NCBI GenBank assembly: GCA_021108295.1 | Contig: JAIORF010000102.1 | Coordinates: 73,260 to 108,026 of the forward strand | Length of the DNA: 34,767 nucleotides | Origin: a bacterium | Lineage (GTDB): Bacteria > Patescibacteriota > Dojkabacteria > SC72 | Direction: 5' to 3' | In this document: piece by piece, positions 5,645 to 19,496 of the stretch | Position numbering within the stretch: position 1 is the first letter of the stretch | Layout of the letters: every line of letters starts with the position of its first letter | Program-made: the position numbers and the translations under genes | The notes under the pieces: model-generated | The model's input: the letters and a program-made list of their open reading frames with translations, nothing else | Database searches by the model: none | Told to the model about the DNA's origin: nothing

Positions 5645-7234
5645 TTGAAACAAGACAAGTTTAAACCAACAGATAGGCAATATGGTTTTCCTACAAATAC
5701 TCCCAAGTCAACAAGAAGATTCTTAGAAATAACTCCAGGTTTAATAGTGTGGTTATTAATATTGTCACCAATCTTGATGGCTCTAATGGGTTGGAATACA
5801 GCATTTGTCATTTATGTTGCATATTTAGTAGCATACTGGACAGTAAGAAGTGCGAAATTTGTATATGGAATTCTGGTTGGCTTGAAACGTGTGAGACGTG
5901 AGACAGCAATTGATTGGAGGCAAAAGATTAAGAATGAGAAAGAAGAAGAGTTTAAGAAGCTTAAGTTTGTCTATATCTTCCCAGTGTATGCAGAGAACTT
6001 AGATATCTGGGAACCATCGTTTGGAGCTTGGGCAAATAGTGATGTTGGGGCAGATAAGATAGATGTAGTAGTAGCAATGGAGGAGGGGAAGCAAGAATTA
6101 CAGGAGAAGAATTTCAGAATTATTCAGGAGAAATATGGAGAGAGGTTTAATAGTATGCAGTATTATGTACATCCAGCAGGTATTCCAGGGGAGATAGCTG
6201 GAGTTAAAGGAGGGAATATCAATTGGGCAACAAGGAGCTATGTAGAAGAATTAGAGGAAAAAGGAGAAGATTTAGGAGAGTATCTATTAATTACCTGTGA
6301 TTCTGACTTAAGGCCTCACCCAAAGTATCTTTCTGCAGTAACATATAAATATTTAACAGTGGAAGAACCAAAGATGAGGTTCTATACTTCAGCGCTTCAT
6401 ACATTTAATAATAATATTTGGAGAGTTGCACCTATTATTAGATCCCAATCCGCGATGCTTACTCTTGTTATTTTGCATGATTGGGTTATAGAAAAGACTA
6501 AAAGATTTTTTTGGTCTGATGAAGAGGTGTATGTAAGAGATTCATTCTCTTCATATATTGTGAATTTACAAACGCTAAAAGATCTTCAGTTTTGGGATCC
6601 TGAGATTGCTAATGACGACACTGCTTTTTTCTGGAATGCTTTGGCTAGGACAAAAGGTAAGTTTAAGAGTCAAGAGGTGTATATCCCTACATATAATGAT
6701 GCTGTTGAGAATAAAAACCTTTGGGAGTCACACAAATCATTCTATAAGCAACAACATAGATGGGGTTGGGGAATTATCACTCTTCCAATTAGTGCTGCTG
6801 CAATGATAGAGGATAAAGAATTTCCACTTAAGAGAAAGTTTATGCTTTTCCAGAGAATGTTTGAAACTCAAATCTGGTATCTTACTATTGTTTTTGTTTT
6901 AACTTTTGGCTTGAAAATAATGGGGTGGTTAAATCCTGAATATCAATTTAGTGCAATTTCACATAATCTGCCAAAGCTACTTAGCTATATCTTTACCTTT
7001 ATTACACTAACCAATATCCCTATAGTGTTTGCAAGGAGACAAATTACGAAAGTCCCAGAAGGCTGGAAGTGGTGGAGACACCTCTTAGACTTTGCAGAAA
7101 CTGTTCTAATTACAGTAAACATGCTCACCTTTGGATTTATTCCATATTTGCAAGCTATGACAGAAATGATGTTGGGTAGGACAGACTCGAATCGCAATTT
7201 CTACATCACTGAGAAAGTTAAGATGAAAAAGTAG
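5645..7234 (+). CDS. Membrane-integrated GT2 family glycosyltransferase
   Basis: 529 aa, TTG start (uncertain), N- and C-terminal TM helices, KGGNIN, CDSD (DxD), NDD and QQHRW (QxxRW). Confidence 0.88.
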   Translation: MKQDKFKPTDRQYGFPTNTPKSTRRFLEITPGLIVWLLILSPILMALMGWNTAFVIYVAYLVAYWTVRSAKFVYGILVGLKRVRRETAIDWRQKIKNEKEEEFKKLKFVYIFPVYAENLDIWEPSFGAWANSDVGADKIDVVVAMEEGKQELQEKNFRIIQEKYGERFNSMQYYVHPAGIPGEIAGVKGGNINWATRSYVEELEEKGEDLGEYLLITCDSDLRPHPKYLSAVTYKYLTVEEPKMRFYTSALHTFNNNIWRVAPIIRSQSAMLTLVILHDWVIEKTKRFFWSDEEVYVRDSFSSYIVNLQTLKDLQFWDPEIANDDTAFFWNALARTKGKFKSQEVYIPTYNDAVENKNLWESHKSFYKQQHRWGWGIITLPISAAAMIEDKEFPLKRKFMLFQRMFETQIWYLTIVFVLTFGLKIMGWLNPEYQFSAISHNLPKLLSYIFTFITLTNIPIVFARRQITKVPEGWKWWRHLLDFAETVLITVNMLTFGFIPYLQAMTEMMLGRTDSNRNFYITEKVKMKK

Positions 7235-7266
7235 TTCATCGAAAGTTCATAACTGTTTAGTAAAAT
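7232..7266 (+). promoter_or_regulatory. Direct-repeat box (AGTTCAT-N4-AGTTCAT) plus -10-like TAAAAT, copy 1
   Basis: 7232-7256 is 24/25 identical to 18643-18667; TAAAAT at 7261-7266 lies 10 nt after the second heptamer. Confidence 0.65.
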
Positions 7267-7294
7267 ATAGGTACTAATCTTAGTATCTAAAGTT

Positions 7295-8428
7295 ATGAAA
7301 ATGTTAAAAATCTTTCTCCTTTCCATCTTCTTTTTCTCAATACCATCAGTTGGTTGTATATATGCTCTAGAGGAGGGTTTCTACAGTACAATATCATTTA
7401 CGATAGGGGAAGTAGCTCCACGAGAAGAGGTATCACATGAGCCTACTCATATAGAAGGTGAATATACCTCTGAAGTGCTCTCTCATACTAAGATTCTCGC
7501 TCATCTTACGATGGATAGTCACAGAAGTAGGATATTCGATAGGTTGACTATGTTGGCATTACCTCCATTCTCACAAGTAGATATTGGATATTACTGGTAT
7601 AACTATACCCCAGACGAAGTAAATGTCGAAACTATAAGGATTCCCCTAAGTAGGGAACATATTCCTAGAGGAGATATGACCCAATTACTCTACGAAAATC
7701 CTAACCAGGAGTTTAAATGGGGCATAACACACTCGGACGGTCCTTCTAAAGGAGGAAAGTATGTAGACATTGAAGGAGTTGGTCTAGTGCAGTCTGATAT
7801 AGATACAGGGATGGACACAGGTGTGATTATAGAGTCCTTTACAACAAAACCCTCAGTTGTATTAGACAAGTGGGAGATAGAAGTGTTGAATGAAAGGCTC
7901 TCTAAAGTCACTCTCTATGTAAAAAATATTACAGGTGAATATTTACAAGATATATGGATAAACTACAAAGATTCTGTATGTAAATCAATAGACCTCGAAG
8001 GGTATAGCGGGTATAAACAGGAGGTATATAAGAAGTGTGTAGTAAGTGAAGATAGTGTGAATTGTGGAACCATTAAAATTATCGATAGAAATACCAAAGC
8101 ACACTGTATAGCATATGGGTCAGATTGGGACAACTACCTTAAACCAGACTCTATATCTGTATGGAACAAAATAGAAGGAGAGTGGACTATTGGAGCTCAA
8201 TTTCAGCCTGGCAGAGAAAGTCTTTGTCTTCGAAGACTTCCATATGCATATAGGACAGAAGAATTAATCGCCGAGTACAATCCACCAGAACCCCCACCTA
8301 CACAAGAAGAATATTGGAAAGACATACTAGGATTAGAACTTTTACCCATCACAAGCTATCAAAGTGGTATGAAGAGTTTTTTAAGATTGATAAAACCATT
8401 GTTTACTGATAATCTTAATACAATATGA
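7295..8428 (+). CDS. Secreted hypothetical protein with Pro-rich linker and LPxT-like C-terminal motif
   Basis: 377 aa, signal peptide, several Cys, NPPEPPPT linker, ILGLELLPITS; stop overlaps the next start (ATGA, 8425-8428). Confidence 0.8.
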   Translation: MKMLKIFLLSIFFFSIPSVGCIYALEEGFYSTISFTIGEVAPREEVSHEPTHIEGEYTSEVLSHTKILAHLTMDSHRSRIFDRLTMLALPPFSQVDIGYYWYNYTPDEVNVETIRIPLSREHIPRGDMTQLLYENPNQEFKWGITHSDGPSKGGKYVDIEGVGLVQSDIDTGMDTGVIIESFTTKPSVVLDKWEIEVLNERLSKVTLYVKNITGEYLQDIWINYKDSVCKSIDLEGYSGYKQEVYKKCVVSEDSVNCGTIKIIDRNTKAHCIAYGSDWDNYLKPDSISVWNKIEGEWTIGAQFQPGRESLCLRRLPYAYRTEELIAEYNPPEPPPTQEEYWKDILGLELLPITSYQSGMKSFLRLIKPLFTDNLNTI

Positions 8429-9843
8429 AACTGTCGATATTAATACCAGACTATGTACAAAGTACTGCGAAAATACTCGTAGACGAGGGCTTTGATTGCT
8501 ACTTAGTAGGAGGTGCAATTAGGGACCTTGTCATAGGGAAAGTCCCCAATGACTACGATTTAGCGACGGATGCACTACCCGATGAAATGTTAAATATGTT
8601 TCCCAAATCGGTAGCGACTGGTGCGAAATTTGGAACAGTACTCTCTCTGACACAGGATAGTAAAGGAGAGGTACATGAAGTAGAAGTCACTACATTTAGG
8701 AGTGAAGCAGAATATGTGGATGGTAGATGGCCAAGCAGTGTGGAGTTTGTAGTAGAGATAGATAAAGATTTAGGTCGGAGAGATTTTACATTCAACGCTA
8801 TGGCTATCGATCTGTCTTCTGCAAACCTTGATGGTACTACAGAGGAACAACGTTTAGATATATATGATCCATTTAATGGAATTACGGACCTTAATTTGAA
8901 GATAGTGAAGGCAGTAGGTACTCCAACTGAAAGATTTAAGGAAGATGGACTACGTGCATTTAAAGCATGTAGATTAGCTAGCCAATTAGAATTCGATATA
9001 GAAGAGGAAACCCTTAAAGCTATAGCAAGGGCTCTACCTGTTGCAGAAATGGTATCCCTAGAGCGTATAAGGGATGAATTTATGAAAATGCTTTTACTCT
9101 CGTCTAAGCCTTCAATAGGGATTAATCTAATGAAAGATACTGGACTCCTAGCAATCTTCCTACCAGAGCTACTAGAAGCGGTAGGTATGGAACAAAAACT
9201 TTTTCATAAATACGATGTATATGTACACTCTCTTCGTACATGCGATATTGCTCACGACTCTGTCAAATTAGCGGCACTCTTACACGACATTGGAAAGGTA
9301 AGAACAGATATGGGTAATGGCCACTTCTATGGACATGACACAGTAGGTGCTCAAATGACAGAAGAAATACTAAGAAGATTAAAATTCCCTAAACAGGAGA
9401 TAGAGAAAGTGTGTAAGTTGGTTAGAAACCATATGTTCTTTTACCCATACGTGACCTCTGAGATGGCTAAGAACGAAAAAGAGAGAATTGTGCTAAATGA
9501 GTGGGGAGATAGTGCAGTACGAAGATTCCTACAAAGAGTAGGGGAAGAAAATATTGAGGATCTCTTTAGATTAAGAATAGCTGATGCCACATCGAACCCA
9601 GCCTCAGAATTTCAGCCAGAAGAAATAGCGCAACTACAGACACACATATCTAAGGTATTACAAGAAGATATGGCTTTAAAGATATCAGACCTAAGAATTG
9701 ATGGAAAAGATCTAGGACAGATTGGTGTTGAAAGCGGTCCTAAAATGGGTGAGATATTAAGAAAACTACTCGATATTGTTGTAGAAGACCCTCTCCAAAA
9801 CAGTAAAGAGATATTACTGGAAGAGGCTAGAAAGATGATGTAA
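8425..9843 (+). CDS. cca: Class II CCA tRNA nucleotidyltransferase with HD domain
   Basis: LVGGAIRD..DYD, loop FRSEAEYVDGRWP, RRDFTFNA, EDGLR, ERIRDE and LLHDIGK. Confidence 0.92.
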   Translation: MKLSILIPDYVQSTAKILVDEGFDCYLVGGAIRDLVIGKVPNDYDLATDALPDEMLNMFPKSVATGAKFGTVLSLTQDSKGEVHEVEVTTFRSEAEYVDGRWPSSVEFVVEIDKDLGRRDFTFNAMAIDLSSANLDGTTEEQRLDIYDPFNGITDLNLKIVKAVGTPTERFKEDGLRAFKACRLASQLEFDIEEETLKAIARALPVAEMVSLERIRDEFMKMLLLSSKPSIGINLMKDTGLLAIFLPELLEAVGMEQKLFHKYDVYVHSLRTCDIAHDSVKLAALLHDIGKVRTDMGNGHFYGHDTVGAQMTEEILRRLKFPKQEIEKVCKLVRNHMFFYPYVTSEMAKNEKERIVLNEWGDSAVRRFLQRVGEENIEDLFRLRIADATSNPASEFQPEEIAQLQTHISKVLQEDMALKISDLRIDGKDLGQIGVESGPKMGEILRKLLDIVVEDPLQNSKEILLEEARKMM

Positions 9844-9874
9844 GATGTACTAACTAATATTAAAATCTGCCTAA

Positions 9875-11299
9875 ATGAAAATCCAATTCTGTGGTGCGGC
9901 TCGTATGGTTACGGGGTCTTGCTACTATATAGACACAGGTTCTGCAAAGTTTCTTGTAGATTGTGGAGCTTTTCAGGGTAGTAAAGAAGCAAATTCCTTG
10001 AATAGGGCACAATTCCCTTTCAATCCTGCAACACTTGATTACATATTTCTCACACATGCACATTTTGATCATTGCGGAAGATTGCCTCGTCTTATAAAAC
10101 AAGGTTTTAAGGGGAGGATAATATCAACTCAACCCACAAGAGATCTTACAAATGTAGTACTTATGGACTCAGCTAAAATACAAAGAGAAGACTTCGAAAG
10201 GTGGGAAGCTAGAGCTACAAGGAAAAATGGTAGTGAGATAGATCCTCAAAGTGAGGACTATATTAGCCACAGACCAATGTATTCAGAAGAAGAGGTAGAA
10301 GACACTATGACAAGGTTTGAAATATATCCATATGGTAATTCTGTCAAACTAGGCAAGGATCTTGAGTTTAGGATGAGAGACGCAGGGCACATTATCGGTT
10401 CTGCGATGCTTGAGTTTTGGCTTAAGACCAAAGCAGGTCGAGACAGAAAAGTGGTGTTCTCAGGGGATCTAGGACAGCCAGGTGCAAGGATAATTAAGGA
10501 TCCAGATATGATTAGTAAGGCGGACTACGTTATTTGTGAGTCTACATATGGTAATAGATTACATAAAAGTAGGGATGAGACAGTGCTGGAGTTCCTTGCG
10601 ATAATAAAACAAGCTCAGAAAGAAGGTGGTAATATTCTAATCCCGTCATTTGCAATAGAGCGTACACAGGAAATTCTCTATGAGATAAATCTGTTTGTTG
10701 AAAATAAGCTACTTGAAGGCTTAGAGGTATTCCTTGATAGTCCAATGGCATCAAAGGCTACTGCAATATTTAAGATGTATCCGGGTTTTTACGATGAAGA
10801 TGCTAGAAGACTTCTTCAGAAAGGGGATAATCCATTTGAGTTTGATGGTTTAAAGATTGTTGAGTCTGCCGAGGAGTCTAAAAGGTTGATAGATAAACAT
10901 GGAATATTGATAATTGCTGGTAGTGGAATGTGTACAGGGGGGAGAATAGTTCACCATCTGAAAAACAATTTAGCCAAACCTAGCACACATGTCATCATTG
11001 TAGGCTATCAAGTAGAAGGAACGCTTGGTAGGAGATTAGTAGAAGGGGAGTCCTCAGTGCGTATCTTTGGTGAACAGATAGAGGTTAATGCTCAGGTTCA
11101 TACTCTTGGAGGATTTTCTGCCCATGGAGATCAAAGAGACTTAAGATATTGGTTAAGAAGTTTTGGACATACTCCTAAGAAAGTATTTATCACACACGGA
11201 GATAAAGAAATCTCAATTGGTTTTGCTAGTAATATTAAGTCAGAATTAGGATTAGACGCATGTGTCCCAGAATTATATGAAGAATTTGAATTAAAGTAG
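9875..11299 (+). CDS. MBL-fold beta-CASP ribonuclease (YSH1/TTHA0252-like)
   Basis: VTGSC, THAHFDH, AGHIIGS, FSGDLG, ESTYG, SGMCTGGR, FSAHGD and THG motifs are all present. Confidence 0.93.
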   Translation: MKIQFCGAARMVTGSCYYIDTGSAKFLVDCGAFQGSKEANSLNRAQFPFNPATLDYIFLTHAHFDHCGRLPRLIKQGFKGRIISTQPTRDLTNVVLMDSAKIQREDFERWEARATRKNGSEIDPQSEDYISHRPMYSEEEVEDTMTRFEIYPYGNSVKLGKDLEFRMRDAGHIIGSAMLEFWLKTKAGRDRKVVFSGDLGQPGARIIKDPDMISKADYVICESTYGNRLHKSRDETVLEFLAIIKQAQKEGGNILIPSFAIERTQEILYEINLFVENKLLEGLEVFLDSPMASKATAIFKMYPGFYDEDARRLLQKGDNPFEFDGLKIVESAEESKRLIDKHGILIIAGSGMCTGGRIVHHLKNNLAKPSTHVIIVGYQVEGTLGRRLVEGESSVRIFGEQIEVNAQVHTLGGFSAHGDQRDLRYWLRSFGHTPKKVFITHGDKEISIGFASNIKSELGLDACVPELYEEFELK

Positions 11300-11300
11300 C

Positions 11301-12260
11301 ATGAAATATCCTGTAGAAATAGAAAAAATATATAAAGACATTGTAGATTTAAATATACAAGGTGCAACTAATGTTGCAATATCCACTCTCGAAGGTATGA
11401 AAGTGGCAGTAAGAAGTGAAGTTGTAAAAGACGATCATTTACTCGAAAGGATTATAAATATTGGTAATTACTTGGCATATGCAAGACCAAATGAGCCTTT
11501 AGCACAGAATGGTGTGCTGTATATTAAACAGTTCTTTCTTGAGAAGGATGGTATGAAGCTAGATCTTTCTAAAGAAAAGAATCTACTGGAGGACCTTTGT
11601 GAGGAGTATTTACAGATAATTGCTAATGCTAAGAGTAAGATAATTGAACACAACGCTCCAAAGCTCACAAATATTGATCATATTCTCACGCATTGCCACT
11701 CTTCAACAGCAGGTGCAATTATCAAAGCTATTGCTAAGGGAGATGATGATTTTACTGCAGTATGTACAGAAACTCGGCCAAGATATCAGGGTAGAATTAC
11801 AGCAAAGAATCTATTAGATGCTAGAATTAAAACTACATTAATTGCAGATAGTGCAGCAGAATCTTTCGTAATCGGAAGAGGTAGTAGACATGTATCTGCT
11901 GTCTTTATCGGTGCAGACGTAATTACCATGAAAGGTTTCTGTGTTAACAAAATAGGTAGTTGGGGTATAGCTATGGCTGCCAAACAAGCAGACAAACCAC
12001 TATATGTGATTACTCCGTTGTTAAAGATTGATCATGATACTGTATACAATGAGATAGAAATAGAGGTTAGAGAAGACAAAGAATTGTGGGACAGTGCTCC
12101 TAAGGGGTTAGAGATGTATAATCCTGCTTTTGAGATTGTAGATGCGGGATTGATAACAGGCTTTGTCACAGAATATGGTATCCTTAAACCAAGTGAAATA
12201 GAGGAGGTTATAAGAAGAGAGTACTCTTGGCTTTTTAAGCACAAACTTGATGACAAATAA
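11301..12260 (+). CDS. Ribose-1,5-bisphosphate isomerase (eIF2B/MtnA family)
   Basis: IQGAT, catalytic-type THCHSST (Cys) and GAD (Asp), ETRP, NKIGS and NPAFE; adjacent to AMP phosphorylase. Confidence 0.87.
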   Translation: MKYPVEIEKIYKDIVDLNIQGATNVAISTLEGMKVAVRSEVVKDDHLLERIINIGNYLAYARPNEPLAQNGVLYIKQFFLEKDGMKLDLSKEKNLLEDLCEEYLQIIANAKSKIIEHNAPKLTNIDHILTHCHSSTAGAIIKAIAKGDDDFTAVCTETRPRYQGRITAKNLLDARIKTTLIADSAAESFVIGRGSRHVSAVFIGADVITMKGFCVNKIGSWGIAMAAKQADKPLYVITPLLKIDHDTVYNEIEIEVREDKELWDSAPKGLEMYNPAFEIVDAGLITGFVTEYGILKPSEIEEVIRREYSWLFKHKLDDK

Positions 12261-12277
12261 TATTAGAAATAACAAAT

Positions 12278-13783
12278 ATGGGGCTGTATCTTAAATCAAG
12301 GGAGTTGGATTTTGAAGGAGGAAAAGACCTTTTTGTTGTACTTAATAGGGCTGACGCAGAGAGAATAGGGATTAAAGATGGAGGAACTGCACTCTTAGGG
12401 TATAGGGATGTTGAAATGTATGTGAAGGTAATCATCACAGATACGAAGGTTGAGGAGGGAGAGATAGGTTTGTATGAAGAGCTTGTGGATGAAAGGTTTG
12501 CTCCTGTAAATCAGAAAGTCTTTTTAGATATTCCTAAACCTACTAAGGCTTTAGACGCTATTAGAAAGAAAATGAAGGGAGAGAAACTTACTGAGGAGGA
12601 ACTTCTCTGCATTATGGAGGATATTGGTAGTAGGAAGTTAAGAGAAACAGAGGTTGCTTTCTTTGTAAGTACATTCTTTAATCCAGGTTTTGAAGATGAT
12701 GAGATATATTGGATGACTAAGGGTATGGCCAATTCTGGAGAGAAGTTGAGTTTTAAGGATATTAAGGATAATGGGGATCTTGTTGTAGACAAACACTCTA
12801 TTGGTGGCACTGCAGGAAAGGGTATTACTCCTATCCTTGTATCTATACTTGCTGCAAATAATTTGGTATGTCCAAATACCTCTACTCGCGCTATTACCTC
12901 TCCAGCAGGTACAAGTGATATCCTAGAAGTTGTAATGCCAGTAGCTGTTTCTAAAGATGATGTGTATAGGGTTGTAAAAGAAACTGGTGCTTGTCTAATA
13001 TGGGGAGGTTCTTTGTATCTAGCTCCTGCTGATGACGAGATTATCAACGTAGAGAGATCTCTTAGAATACAGGAGTTCCAGAAGGTCTTAGTAAGTATTG
13101 TGGCTAAGAAGGTTGCTATGGGTTCTACATGTGTATTAATTGATCTTCCATATGGTAAGAATACAAAGTTGGATAGGCCTGATGATTTAGCGTTTTTGGA
13201 GAAGGGGTTTATAAAATTATTTGCGAAATTCGGTATTAATTGCCTCATTATTAAACGACAGATCAAAGGTCCAGATGGTAATGGTGTGGGCCCTGCCTTA
13301 GAGATTAGGGAGGCATTAAGGGTGCTTGAGCAGACGGATAATAGGTCGAAGGATTTGGAGAATACAGTATTGGATATGGCAGAGATACTACTTGAGGAGT
13401 CTGGTAAGGCTAAGAAGGGAGAGGGTAGGGATTTAGCTATAGAGACACTGTCTAGTAAGAGGGCATTGAGTACATTCTGGAGAATTGCAGTTAGCCAAGG
13501 GAAGAAGGGAGTGATGCTTTCTCAAGAGATTGAGGTGGGTAAGCTTACTTATGAGCTTAAAGCTACTAAGAGTGGTACAATCATGAGGATTGATACTAGA
13601 ACTATTGTAGATATAGCTAGGTCTTTAGGAACTCCTAAGATAAAAGAAGCAGGAATATTCTTTGAAAAGAATGTGGGAGATCGTGTAGAGAAGGGGGAGG
13701 TTGTAGCGATATTATATGCACAAACAGAGGGTAGATTAGAGCAGGGTAAAGAGGCTGTAGAGGGTTTATTAGATATTAAATAG
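12278..13783 (+). CDS. deoA: AMP (NMP) phosphorylase, archaeal-type thymidine phosphorylase family
   Basis: 501 aa with the extra N-terminal domain typical of AMP phosphorylases, DKHSIGG, RAITSPAGTSD, LAPADD, SIVAKK and GVGPALE. Confidence 0.9.
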   Translation: MGLYLKSRELDFEGGKDLFVVLNRADAERIGIKDGGTALLGYRDVEMYVKVIITDTKVEEGEIGLYEELVDERFAPVNQKVFLDIPKPTKALDAIRKKMKGEKLTEEELLCIMEDIGSRKLRETEVAFFVSTFFNPGFEDDEIYWMTKGMANSGEKLSFKDIKDNGDLVVDKHSIGGTAGKGITPILVSILAANNLVCPNTSTRAITSPAGTSDILEVVMPVAVSKDDVYRVVKETGACLIWGGSLYLAPADDEIINVERSLRIQEFQKVLVSIVAKKVAMGSTCVLIDLPYGKNTKLDRPDDLAFLEKGFIKLFAKFGINCLIIKRQIKGPDGNGVGPALEIREALRVLEQTDNRSKDLENTVLDMAEILLEESGKAKKGEGRDLAIETLSSKRALSTFWRIAVSQGKKGVMLSQEIEVGKLTYELKATKSGTIMRIDTRTIVDIARSLGTPKIKEAGIFFEKNVGDRVEKGEVVAILYAQTEGRLEQGKEAVEGLLDIK

Positions 13784-18291: not shown

Positions 18292-18645
18292 ATGGCTAAG
18301 AAGAACGAGAACCAAAAGGTATATGAATTAATGATTATACTTAAACCTCTGCTACCAGATGAGGTAAGAAAAGAACTACACAAGGAGATTATTGGTCTTG
18401 TAGAATCTAAAAAGGGCAAGATCTTGGATATAGATGTATGGGGTAAAAGATATCTTACTTACAAAATATTAGGACACAATGAAGGATATTACATCATTTA
18501 CAACTATGAAATTGAACCAAAGCATATTGGAGAGATAAATAGACAATTGAAATTGAAACAAGAAATACTTAGAAGTCTAATAACAGAGGTTACACATCCT
18601 GAGGATATAGGAACAGGAATTAAGAAAAAAGAGATAAGTATCTAG
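18292..18645 (+). CDS. rpsF: 30S ribosomal protein S6
   Basis: YELMIILKP, WGKRYLTYKI, EGYY and ILR; rpsF-ssb-rpsR order; extended -10 TGCTAAAAT and AAGGA upstream. Confidence 0.96.
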   Translation: MAKKNENQKVYELMIILKPLLPDEVRKELHKEIIGLVESKKGKILDIDVWGKRYLTYKILGHNEGYYIIYNYEIEPKHIGEINRQLKLKQEILRSLITEVTHPEDIGTGIKKKEISI

Positions 18646-18677
18646 TTCATCGAAAGTTCATAATTGTATTGTATGAT
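18643..18677 (+). promoter_or_regulatory. Direct-repeat box (AGTTCAT-N4-AGTTCAT) plus -10-like TATGAT, copy 2
   Basis: 18643-18667 is 24/25 identical to 7232-7256; TATGAT at 18672-18677 has the same offset as in copy 1. Confidence 0.65.
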
Positions 18678-18708
18678 TAGATATAGTTAAATTAAATAAA
18701 TAATATAT

Positions 18709-19176
18709 ATGGCAGCAAGATCTTTAAATAAAGTTCAGCTAATAGGGAATCTCACAAGAGATCCAGAATTACGATATACAAACTCTGGTGCAGCTGTAGC
18801 AACCTTTGGGATGGCTACCAATAAGTCTTGGAAAGATGATAAAGGAGAGTTAAAGGAATTAGCAGAGTTCCACAATATAGTAGCATGGAGTAAGATGGCA
18901 GAAATATGTCAGCAACTTCTAGCTAAAGGTATGAAGGTATACATCGAAGGATCCCTCAATACAAGGAATTGGGAAGCTGACGACGGAAGTAAGAGGTATA
19001 AGACAGAGGTAAGAGTAAACGATATGATTCTGTTGGATAATAAAGGGAAACAGGGAGTTGGTTTCACTGAACAGCCTACAGATGATAAGAAGGAAGAAGT
19101 AAAGAAAGACTCCGAGCCTGTTAAAGATACCCCCTCTAAGGATGAAGATCCACTAGAAGAGGATTTACCATTTTAA
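18709..19176 (+). CDS. ssb: Single-stranded DNA-binding protein
   Basis: LNKVQLIGNLTRDPELRYT and acidic C-terminal tip EEDLPF. Confidence 0.97.
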   Translation: MAARSLNKVQLIGNLTRDPELRYTNSGAAVATFGMATNKSWKDDKGELKELAEFHNIVAWSKMAEICQQLLAKGMKVYIEGSLNTRNWEADDGSKRYKTEVRVNDMILLDNKGKQGVGFTEQPTDDKKEEVKKDSEPVKDTPSKDEDPLEEDLPF

Positions 19177-19196: not shown

Positions 19197-19496
19197 ATGA
19201 GTGAAGAAGTAAAAAACACAACAACAGCGACTACTACAACGACACAAAGTAGTCCTCCAAAGAAGAGAAGGAGAAAGAGAAAGATTATTCAAAATCTGAA
19301 GTGTCCTCTTTGTGAGTCTGGTACTAAGTACCTATCTTACAAAGATGTATACCAATTAAAAAAGTTTACATCTGTAAGAGGTAAGATCATATCTACAGAG
19401 AAATCTGGAGTATGTCACAAACATCAGAGACAGCTTACAAAAGCTATCAAAAGAGCTAGAGTCATGGCATTACTTCCATATGTAGCAAAAGAGTAG
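19197..19496 (+). CDS. rpsR: 30S ribosomal protein S18 (zinc-binding type)
   Basis: CPLC, YKD, RGKI, GVCHKHQRQL..AIKRAR..ALLPY; Thr-rich and basic N-terminal extension. Confidence 0.96.
   Translation: MSEEVKNTTTATTTTTQSSPPKKRRRKRKIIQNLKCPLCESGTKYLSYKDVYQLKKFTSVRGKIISTEKSGVCHKHQRQLTKAIKRARVMALLPYVAKE

Follow-up and report, generated by a model that had tools for sequence, protein, structure and literature searches.

PhoB, an activator of the OmpR family, binds Pho boxes, in which two direct repeats one helical turn apart replace the −35 element 10 bp before the −10 hexamer and region 4 of the sigma factor is contacted. ChxR of Chlamydia is an atypical orphan regulator of the same family. Natural competence is governed by other controls as well, among them ComK boxes in Bacillus and CRP-S sites with Sxy/TfoX in Gammaproteobacteria. 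In streptococci, promoters activated by CiaR carry TTTAAG-N5-TTTAAG at a distance of ten from the −10, according to the promoter passages of PMC3091779, and the SigX core regulon, as outlined in the parts of PMC5069739 that deal with it, comprises comFC, comEA, comEC, dprA, radC, ssbB, a lytic enzyme (CbpD/LytF) and the methylase DpnA. For Patescibacteria, natural competence, shown for Saccharibacteria, is so far the only route to genetics (PMC10633639); the accessible passages of that paper name no regulator or regulon, and those on promoters concern tuf and rpsJ cassettes. We found no description of a competence regulon, or of an element like the one reported here, in the openly accessible literature on competence in Patescibacteria, Dojkabacteria or the candidate phyla radiation, and work on uptake genes with a direct repeat and a response regulator came only from streptococci or from reviews. 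Here we describe a direct-repeat box, AGTTCAT-CGAA-AGTTCAT, that occurs twice in a 34,767-nucleotide window of a Dojkabacteria genome (positions 73,260–108,026 of contig JAIORF010000102.1, assembly GCA_021108295.1; G000:C1:73260-108026 in our numbering). From sequence comparison, we consider it probable on balance that the box is an upstream promoter element of a DNA-uptake (competence) regulon in one Dojkabacteria family, with activation of the OmpR/PhoB type and the orphan regulator RR-A as the likeliest reader.

Both window copies lie on the forward strand. The original prediction had described two near-identical 25-nucleotide copies, and these are real: TAGTTCATCGAAAGTTCATAACTGT at 7232–7256 and TAGTTCATCGAAAGTTCATAATTGT at 18643–18667 are identical over their first 21 nucleotides and at 24/25 positions overall, and AGTTCATCGAAAGTTCAT is an exact match at positions 7233 and 18644. 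When up to three mismatches (≤3) were allowed, the 18-mer core matched the window twice, compared with 0.09 matches expected, and none of 100 shuffles reached two. The finer anatomy was also as described. Each copy begins with a TAG that is the stop codon of the gene upstream: for copy 1 (7233..7250), an open reading frame (ORF) of 529 amino acids without a Pfam family (5645..7234, + strand, stop at 7232–7234) and, for copy 2 (18644..18661), rpsF, which encodes ribosomal protein S6 (18292..18645, + strand, stop at 18643–18645). AGTTCAT occurs twice in each with an 11-bp period (7233–7239 and 7244–7250; 18644–18650 and 18655–18661), and −10-like hexamers, TAAAAT at 7261–7266 and TATGAT at 18672–18677, start exactly 10 nt past the second heptamer. 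If transcription starts 7 nt past the −10 hexamer, copy 1 would span about −40 to −23.

The geometry of the box is fixed throughout the assembly (1.206 Mb in 142 contigs, 98.8% complete; genes called with a crude longest-ORF caller). GTTCAT-N5-GTTCAT has nine copies, compared with 0–1 at any other spacer length from 0 to 15. Eight of these nine lie directly before the start of a gene and are followed after 10 nt by a −10 hexamer; the exact copy at C1:398953 (minus strand), which lies inside an ORF and has no −10, was dropped from the site set. Of eight copies with one mismatch, that at C1:399586 (minus strand) has the full architecture and was included as the ninth site. A position weight matrix (PWM; 36 columns, 43.6 bits) derived from the nine sites scored them at 34.2–46.7 bits, with copy 1 at 46.7, the top score in the assembly, and copy 2 at 44.3, compared with 13.3 for the next best position; because the matrix was trained on those same sites, the gap between the scores, rather than their height, is what counts. 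All nine sites have the same orientation relative to genes, lie directly before one, keep exactly 10 nt to the −10 and are on contigs C1 or C2 (680 kb, GC 36–37%). An ATG follows 5–7 nt past the −10 at seven of the nine, so the mRNAs from these sites would lack a leader; only the window copies would have one, of 28 nt (copy 1) and 31 nt (copy 2). The spacer peak at N5 only, together with the 10-nt distance at 9/9 sites, bears out the site geometry of the OmpR/PhoB type that had been proposed.

Assignment of the targets with Pfam and NCBIfam profiles points to DNA uptake. One site precedes comEA (HHH_3 and SLBB domains), which is followed by comEC as two overlapping ORFs (DUF4131 and Competence; metallo-beta-lactamase); others precede dprA (DNA_processg_A) and then topA, radC (RadC), comFC (ComF family, with a double zinc ribbon and a phosphoribosyltransferase fold) and, at window copy 2, ssb (SSB; 18709–19176, + strand), the sole ssb found in the assembly, with rpsR (19197–19496, + strand) behind it. 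The remaining sites head genes for a 493-amino-acid M23 peptidase (Peptidase_M23), a peptidoglycan hydrolase; a 171-amino-acid NYN-domain protein; an IS200-like Y1 transposase (Y1_Tnp), followed by a sortase; and, at window copy 1, a 377-amino-acid protein without a family, followed by a cluster of cca, RNase J-like, e2b2 and AMP phosphorylase genes. Five of the nine sites precede uptake or processing machinery (comEA, comEC, comF, dprA, ssb) and a sixth precedes radC, as is also the case in the closed genome G056 from another genus; these six of nine targets belong to the usual set of genes with which naturally transformable bacteria take up and process DNA. On this content, the regulon in all likelihood serves DNA uptake and processing. 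The suggested link between ssb and the window's nucleotide cluster stands insofar as the box precedes both; the gene at 7295..8428, taken for part of that salvage cluster, instead encodes a secreted protein with a sortase signal.

The target list also bears on the two regulons that the repeat had brought to mind. A direct repeat with an 11-bp period 10 nt before the −10 has the layout of a Pho box, and the best, sub-threshold, NCBIfam match of both OmpR-type regulators found in the assembly (RR-A and RR-B, described below) is the PhoB model. Nevertheless, a phosphate-starvation regulon is extremely improbable: none of the nine sites precedes a pst or pho gene, and genes for phosphate transport or phosphatases are absent from the targets; a profile search that gave matches in 13/14 reference genomes detected no PhoU domain in the 98.8% complete assembly; and the two regulators, at 121 and 192 bits, fall far below the PhoB cut-off of 296. 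A LexA-controlled SOS box would account for the two GTTC motifs in the repeat and for ssb, which is under SOS control in some bacteria. It has an equally slim chance, as the targets are uptake genes rather than uvr, recA or lexA, the assembly gave no match to the LexA DNA-binding domain, and recA, which is present, has no box upstream (best PWM score, −14) and carries a TTGACT hexamer instead. The box, which stands before almost every DNA-uptake gene of this genome and its relatives, appears to mark a so far undescribed switch for natural competence, and not a phosphate or DNA-damage response.

Comparison with 41 sampled genomes from 21 genera of the same Dojkabacteria family (our genome is excluded from the counts) revealed that the box keeps its place while its half-site drifts. 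The exact pattern of this genus was found at three and seven sites in two congeners (G001 and G002, respectively), in 0/22 family genomes from other genera and in 0/16 genomes from the same order. An impression of no conservation gained from this exact search was overturned by inspection of orthologues and by a relaxed family pattern, TTMAD-N6-TTMAW-N10-YANNNT. Among the best 30 matching loci per query, the relaxed pattern stood upstream of comEA in 27/29, radC in 25/29, the 377-amino-acid protein gene in 24/29, ssb in 23/29, comFC in 18/29, Y1 transposase copies in 16/29 and dprA in 11/19 loci. Matches elsewhere were rare: of 81 in 591,514 nt of ssb, comEA and radC loci, 75 were the target sites and 6 lay elsewhere, and the 30 RR-A loci (211,812 nt) had a single match. 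Pooling yielded 147 distinct sites in 36 genomes, with the profile a-N-TTMAK, a spacer that often begins with C, and then TTTMAT; TT-M-A at both halves is set by the definition of the pattern, whereas the flanking preferences extend beyond it. The commonest half-site across the family is TTTAAT, GTTCAT being typical only of this genus. Upstream of copy 1, a homologue of ORF 5645..7234 precedes the orthologous box in 16/27 related loci.

The closed genome G056 has 23 pattern matches, compared with 10 for a reversed control, and 13 of the 23 share a local form, TTAATCTAGATTTAAT (TTAATCT-N3-TTMAT). By adjacency to located orthologues, this form precedes comFC, a Y1 transposase gene, ssb, the LPxT gene (the orthologue of the 377-amino-acid protein gene), radC and comEA; it also precedes dprA and the genes for an NYN protein and an M23 peptidase, such that all nine gene families were recovered. 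In G056 the box also stands before genes for an N6/N4 DNA methylase, which recalls DpnA with its induction in competence, and for a small Gp49-like protein, before a short ORF whose match to CdiA_C is sub-threshold, and before two unknown genes (sites include C1:262798 (L371), C1:193400 (L369) and C1:682371 (L368)).

That the copies are a dispersed repeat, mobile or due to chance, and regulate nothing might be suspected from those before IS200-like transposase genes, which are multi-copy in relatives and flanked by GC-rich palindromes. However, similarity between the copies stops after the box and −10, every copy faces a start codon at a fixed distance, and orthologous positions are kept across the sampled genera while the flanks diverge, against a background of about one match per 200 kb; this explanation has next to no probability. 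The scan of genome and relatives that the original prediction had proposed came out in its favour: copies are oriented and conserved upstream of orthologues, and a small regulon of nine sites with shared orientation and spacing emerges, so that we regard the box, on comparative grounds, as very probably the cis-element of one regulon. The Y1 transposase genes (loci L273-L302) are multi-copy in many relatives, several of them interrupted by stops. Often a GC-rich palindrome (GGTCTGACC-TAGG-TCAGACC type) comes first and is followed by the box and the ATG; the IS200-like elements seem to carry the host competence box as their own promoter.

As to mechanism, a winged-helix regulator of the OmpR/PhoB family would bind the two repeats head to tail in the −35 position, at about −39 to −34 and −28 to −23 given a transcript start 7 nt past the −10. 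The bound dimer would replace the −35 contact and recruit RNA polymerase with the housekeeping sigma factor (class II activation, as with CiaR and PhoB) to promoters expected to have a good −10 and no −35. At the nine sites, the hexamer 16–18 nt from the −10 lies within the spacer, whose sequence varies, and only the CGAA class yields a weak 4/6 match to a −35. The invariant 10-nt spacing suggests a fixed contact between protein and polymerase and therefore favours activation, which we consider likely. Under negative control of the same regulon, by contrast, the direct repeat would be a repressor operator that blocks the −35 region of otherwise active promoters. The box does cover the −35 position; in any case, no −35 signal is seen in this genome at promoters of the leaderless type (≤0.11 bit per column from −40 to −13); and several sites have TG just before the −10, with TGT before TAAAAT or TAAACT at comEA, dprA and radC, such that these promoters might need no activator, a point against activation that makes a repressor conceivable. 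Repression is nonetheless unlikely, as the exact 10-nt distance at 9/9 sites and nearly all orthologous sites fits polymerase contact better than occlusion, and the geometry is identical in the activator PhoB. It is also that of the activator CiaR, as far as the promoter data in PMC3091779 go.

The reader of the box was expected to be encoded outside the window, and the assembly has just two proteins with a Trans_reg_C domain, both located elsewhere. RR-A (G000:C2:69318-69986; 222 amino acids) adjoins dnaN, has no kinase neighbour and matches the receiver domain weakly (34 bits vs 115). RR-B (G000:C1:389744-390403; 219 amino acids) is a normal response regulator with an adjoining HAMP-HisKA-HATPase kinase. 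The inventory of regulators that had been called for thus yielded two OmpR-type proteins and, as detailed below, sigma factors, although no LexA DNA-binding domain; an OmpR-type protein would be the only DNA-binding family found that matches the box. When aligned with DrrD (1kgs), RR-A has Asn in place of the acceptor Asp and Tyr in place of the conserved Lys. Across the family, the Lys is always Tyr, and the Asp is Asn in some genera and retained in others. Lacking both residues, the receiver of RR-A would act without phosphorylation, and we propose this orphan protein as the likeliest reader, with about an even chance of being the right one. Orthologues of RR-A (≥41% identity, E ≤7e-37) are present in 39/41 family genomes, its winged-helix DNA-binding domain is almost invariant across them, and in the closed genomes G003 and G023 it is the sole match. 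In the class as a whole, orthologues with at least 50% identity are confined to the family (13/13 sampled), with ≤37% elsewhere, the level of generic paralogues. Covariation between recognition helix and half-site was inspected by eye, and the helix is nearly invariant.

Another reader of the same box would have to be RR-B with its kinase, a sigma-like protein or a member of some other protein family. RR-B is a complete OmpR-family regulator with an adjoining kinase, but RR-B-like paralogues occur in only about 15/41 family genomes and in neither G003 nor G023, both of which keep the box. Besides one primary sigma factor, the assembly encodes two tandem 419-amino-acid sigma-like proteins, P0002 and P0003, whose two matches to region 4 could in principle read two repeats. 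Their orthologues were found in the same genus only (G002), the closed genomes G003, G023 and G056 have the primary sigma alone, the −10 hexamers look housekeeping-like and neither repeat lies 16–18 nt from the −10. Because the sigma-like proteins are restricted to the genus, the alternative-sigma explanation was rejected family-wide; in the three closed genomes the housekeeping sigma must read the box promoters. The sigma-like pair (G000:C1:331820-334390, minus strand; L089:712-1971 and L090:715-1974) consists of paralogues, both with a region 2 plus two region-4-like helix-turn-helix units, that share an identical stretch of about 45 residues. On the other side, RR-A is tied to the box through its distribution across related, non-independent genomes, and this apparent link may hold or fail with equal probability. 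We consider a reader other than RR-A rather unlikely.

Several further observations weigh against a competence regulon read by RR-A. The whole analysis is based on sequence comparison of metagenome-assembled genomes, and we know of no cultivated or demonstrably transformable member of the class. To our knowledge, no role in competence has been established for the NYN, Y1 transposase and LPxT protein families. The gene recA lacks a box, and none of the nine sites belongs to the type IV pilus ATPase (T2SSE) genes at C1:131074-133551; co-regulation of pilus genes and recA, a trait of several but not all known competence regulons, is not seen here. The relaxed pattern missed 6/29 loci for ssb, 2/29 for comEA, 4/29 for radC, 5/29 for the LPxT gene, 11/29 for comFC, 13/29 for Y1 and 8/19 for dprA; most misses were near matches when judged, more softly, by eye, with a −10 beginning with A or G, or with TTAAC or TGTCAT half-sites. 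With this genome's dprA as the query, 21/41 family genomes, including the closed G003 and G023, gave no match; the genomes without one keep boxes before comEA, comFC, radC and ssb. G004 (88% complete) and G045 (92% complete), both of which have boxes, gave no RR-A orthologue. None of 30 RR-A loci has a box before RR-A, so autoregulation is not indicated.

Beyond the family, 0/32 genomes from other families of the class had the relaxed box before radC, a further point on the same side. A generic search of the same regions, for any hexamer containing T-M-A that recurs at 11 bp and has a −10 after a further 10 nt, gave 4/32 matches, compared with 0.09 expected, with the half-sites TGTAAT/G in family f14 and CTTAAT/G in family f10; this is only a hint that the same geometry is used with other hexamers outside the family. 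Relatives of dprA at 42–49% identity likewise have hexamer-N5-hexamer-N10-CATACT or CATAAT before the ATG, and the architecture of the box may be older than its half-site.

Between the −10 of copy 1 and the start codon lies a leader hairpin (7268..7289, + strand; 9-bp stem, −8.4 kcal/mol). Hairpins of differing sequence occupy the equivalent position in most of 25 orthologous leaders (L212-L238), where pairing is kept across genera while the sequence changes, with compensatory changes in 5/7 consensus pairs; the hairpin could stabilise the 5′ end or gate translation. A scan of the window with Rfam at gathering thresholds found no family at either box copy and just two tRNAs in the window. The first gene behind copy 1 (7295..8428, + strand) encodes a secreted 377-amino-acid beta-sandwich protein with a C-terminal LPxT sorting signal. 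L350, P351 and T353 are invariant in 26 sequences and are followed by a helix at 360–376, and a signal peptide is visible in all orthologues. Signal peptide, LPxTG-like motif, hydrophobic stretch and charged tail together are those of a sortase substrate, as which the protein is predicted. The predicted structure is beta-rich (pLDDT 85). No Pfam or NCBIfam family, no usable ESM Atlas match and no Foldseek PDB match at E ≤0.001 was found for the protein, and a wide comparison with VIA-align returned generic beta-sandwich domains only, with Z up to 8.1, within the noise range of the tool.

This gene is followed on the same strand by genes for a cca-like nucleotidyltransferase with an HD domain (8425–9843, overlapping the LPxT gene by 4 nt), a beta-CASP/RNase J-like protein (9875–11299), a member of the IF-2B/e2b2 family (11301–12260) and an AMP/nucleoside phosphorylase-like protein (12278–13783), with gaps of −4, 31, 1 and 17 nt from 7295 to 13783. 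No terminator-like site was found on the + strand of the cluster, the cca-like gene directly follows the LPxT gene in 27/27 loci, and the order LPxT, cca, RNase J-like, e2b2, phosphorylase is kept in the closed genomes G056, G023 and G003 (two other genera). Short gaps, lack of a terminator-like site and conserved order make a single transcription unit with the nucleotide cluster plausible, and the LPxT gene and the four genes to 13783 possibly form one transcript. At the site before the Y1 transposase gene, the sortase gene (L006:5915-6709, minus strand) starts 9 nt after the transposase gene, and sortase and LPxT substrate may be co-induced.

At copy 2, the leader of ssb contains an element, AGTTAAATT (18685..18693, + strand), that is kept in nearly all family genomes. 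As the sole ssb found, situated within rpsF–ssb–rpsR, this constitutively needed gene would receive an inducible internal promoter from the box. AGTTAAATT includes TAAATT, 15 nt before the ssb ATG, a signal that is common genome-wide: of 620 genes on C1 and C2, 67 have a TAAWWT-like hexamer (TAAATT, TAATTT, TAATAT) that ends at exactly 14 nt from the start codon and 38 have one that ends at exactly 15 nt. Examples in the window stand at 18688–18693 and before the genes at 9875 and 12278. Some of the genes so preceded are internal to tightly packed operons, and Shine-Dalgarno-like words peak weakly; the hexamer may be a lineage-specific signal for translation or a short-leader promoter.

Two other loci have unusual gene structures. 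In the split comEC (L001:5861-8249; G000:C1:10661-13049), the channel part (DUF4131 and Competence) has 538 amino acids, and an internal ATG some 26 nt ahead of the first stop is the probable start of the metallo-beta-lactamase part; the layout looks like a natural split with coupled translation, not a frameshift. At L002:7600-8736 (G000:C1:49200-50336), ribosomal protein S2 carries, fused to its C terminus, a domain with a match to the RNA polymerase alpha C-terminal domain or a helix-hairpin-helix. A search for sequencing runs that contain the genome listed no RNA run, but only DNA from marine sediment and cold-seep metagenomes. Contigs C3–C142 (140 small contigs, 526 kb) have a GC content of 30–54%, compared with 36–37% for C1 and C2, and related genomes measure 0.6–0.9 Mb; these contigs are probably partly foreign despite a marker contamination of 0.28%.

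If the box is what we propose, it would offer a testable means of inducing competence in relatives that are not in culture, and competence regulons would become predictable from sequence alone. Direct evidence could also be gained on whether reduced cells import DNA for recombination or for nucleotides, as the nucleotide-catabolism cluster, too, is headed by this box. More boldly, and only as a tentative possibility about which we are doubtful, an orphan, phosphorylation-independent OmpR-family protein might be the master activator of competence in a whole family of Patescibacteria, with one box coupling uptake to a hydrolase, to a surface-protein/AMP phosphorylase/e2b2 cluster and to IS200-like transposases. 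Such a programme might kill or open a neighbour, import its DNA and recombine or eat it, and single-stranded-DNA transposons might have adopted the box to fire when single-stranded DNA enters.

Set beside the described systems, the box would add an OmpR-type activator as a fourth kind of competence control, next to the sigma-factor, ComK and CRP/Sxy types. In contrast to the Pho box of PhoB, it has another half-site and other targets, with no PhoU or pst link. RR-A is comparable to HP1043 of Helicobacter (PDB 2hqr), an atypical orphan member of the OmpR family, in that RR-A has no kinase neighbour and its own receiver has Asn for the acceptor Asp and Tyr for the conserved Lys; the two proteins are distant from one another (E 2e-17), however, and some genera of the family keep the Asp. 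With CiaR, the box shares a hexamer-N5-hexamer direct repeat ten nucleotides from the −10, as given in the promoter passages of PMC3091779; the family consensus TTMAK-N6-TTMAT (commonest half-site TTTAAT) differs from the CiaR half-site mainly in the last base, and both regulons are small, at about 10–15 promoters. CiaR differs in having the kinase CiaH and a normal receiver, whereas the candidate here is an orphan with a degenerate one. Its regulon, so far as PMC3091779 describes it in those passages, comprises small RNAs, htrA and others and dampens competence, whereas here the uptake genes themselves carry the box. In its content, the regulon resembles the SigX core regulon as portrayed in the relevant parts of PMC5069739: one cis-element precedes scattered comEA/EC, comF, dprA, radC and ssb operons and a cell-wall hydrolase, and a DNA methylase is included, here in G056. 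Unlike the known competence elements, the box is an OmpR-type direct repeat, rather than the −10 box of an alternative sigma factor, a pair of AT-boxes or a palindrome, and, unlike the known competence regulons, this one leaves pilus genes and recA outside and takes in a nucleotide-catabolism cluster and IS200-like transposases.

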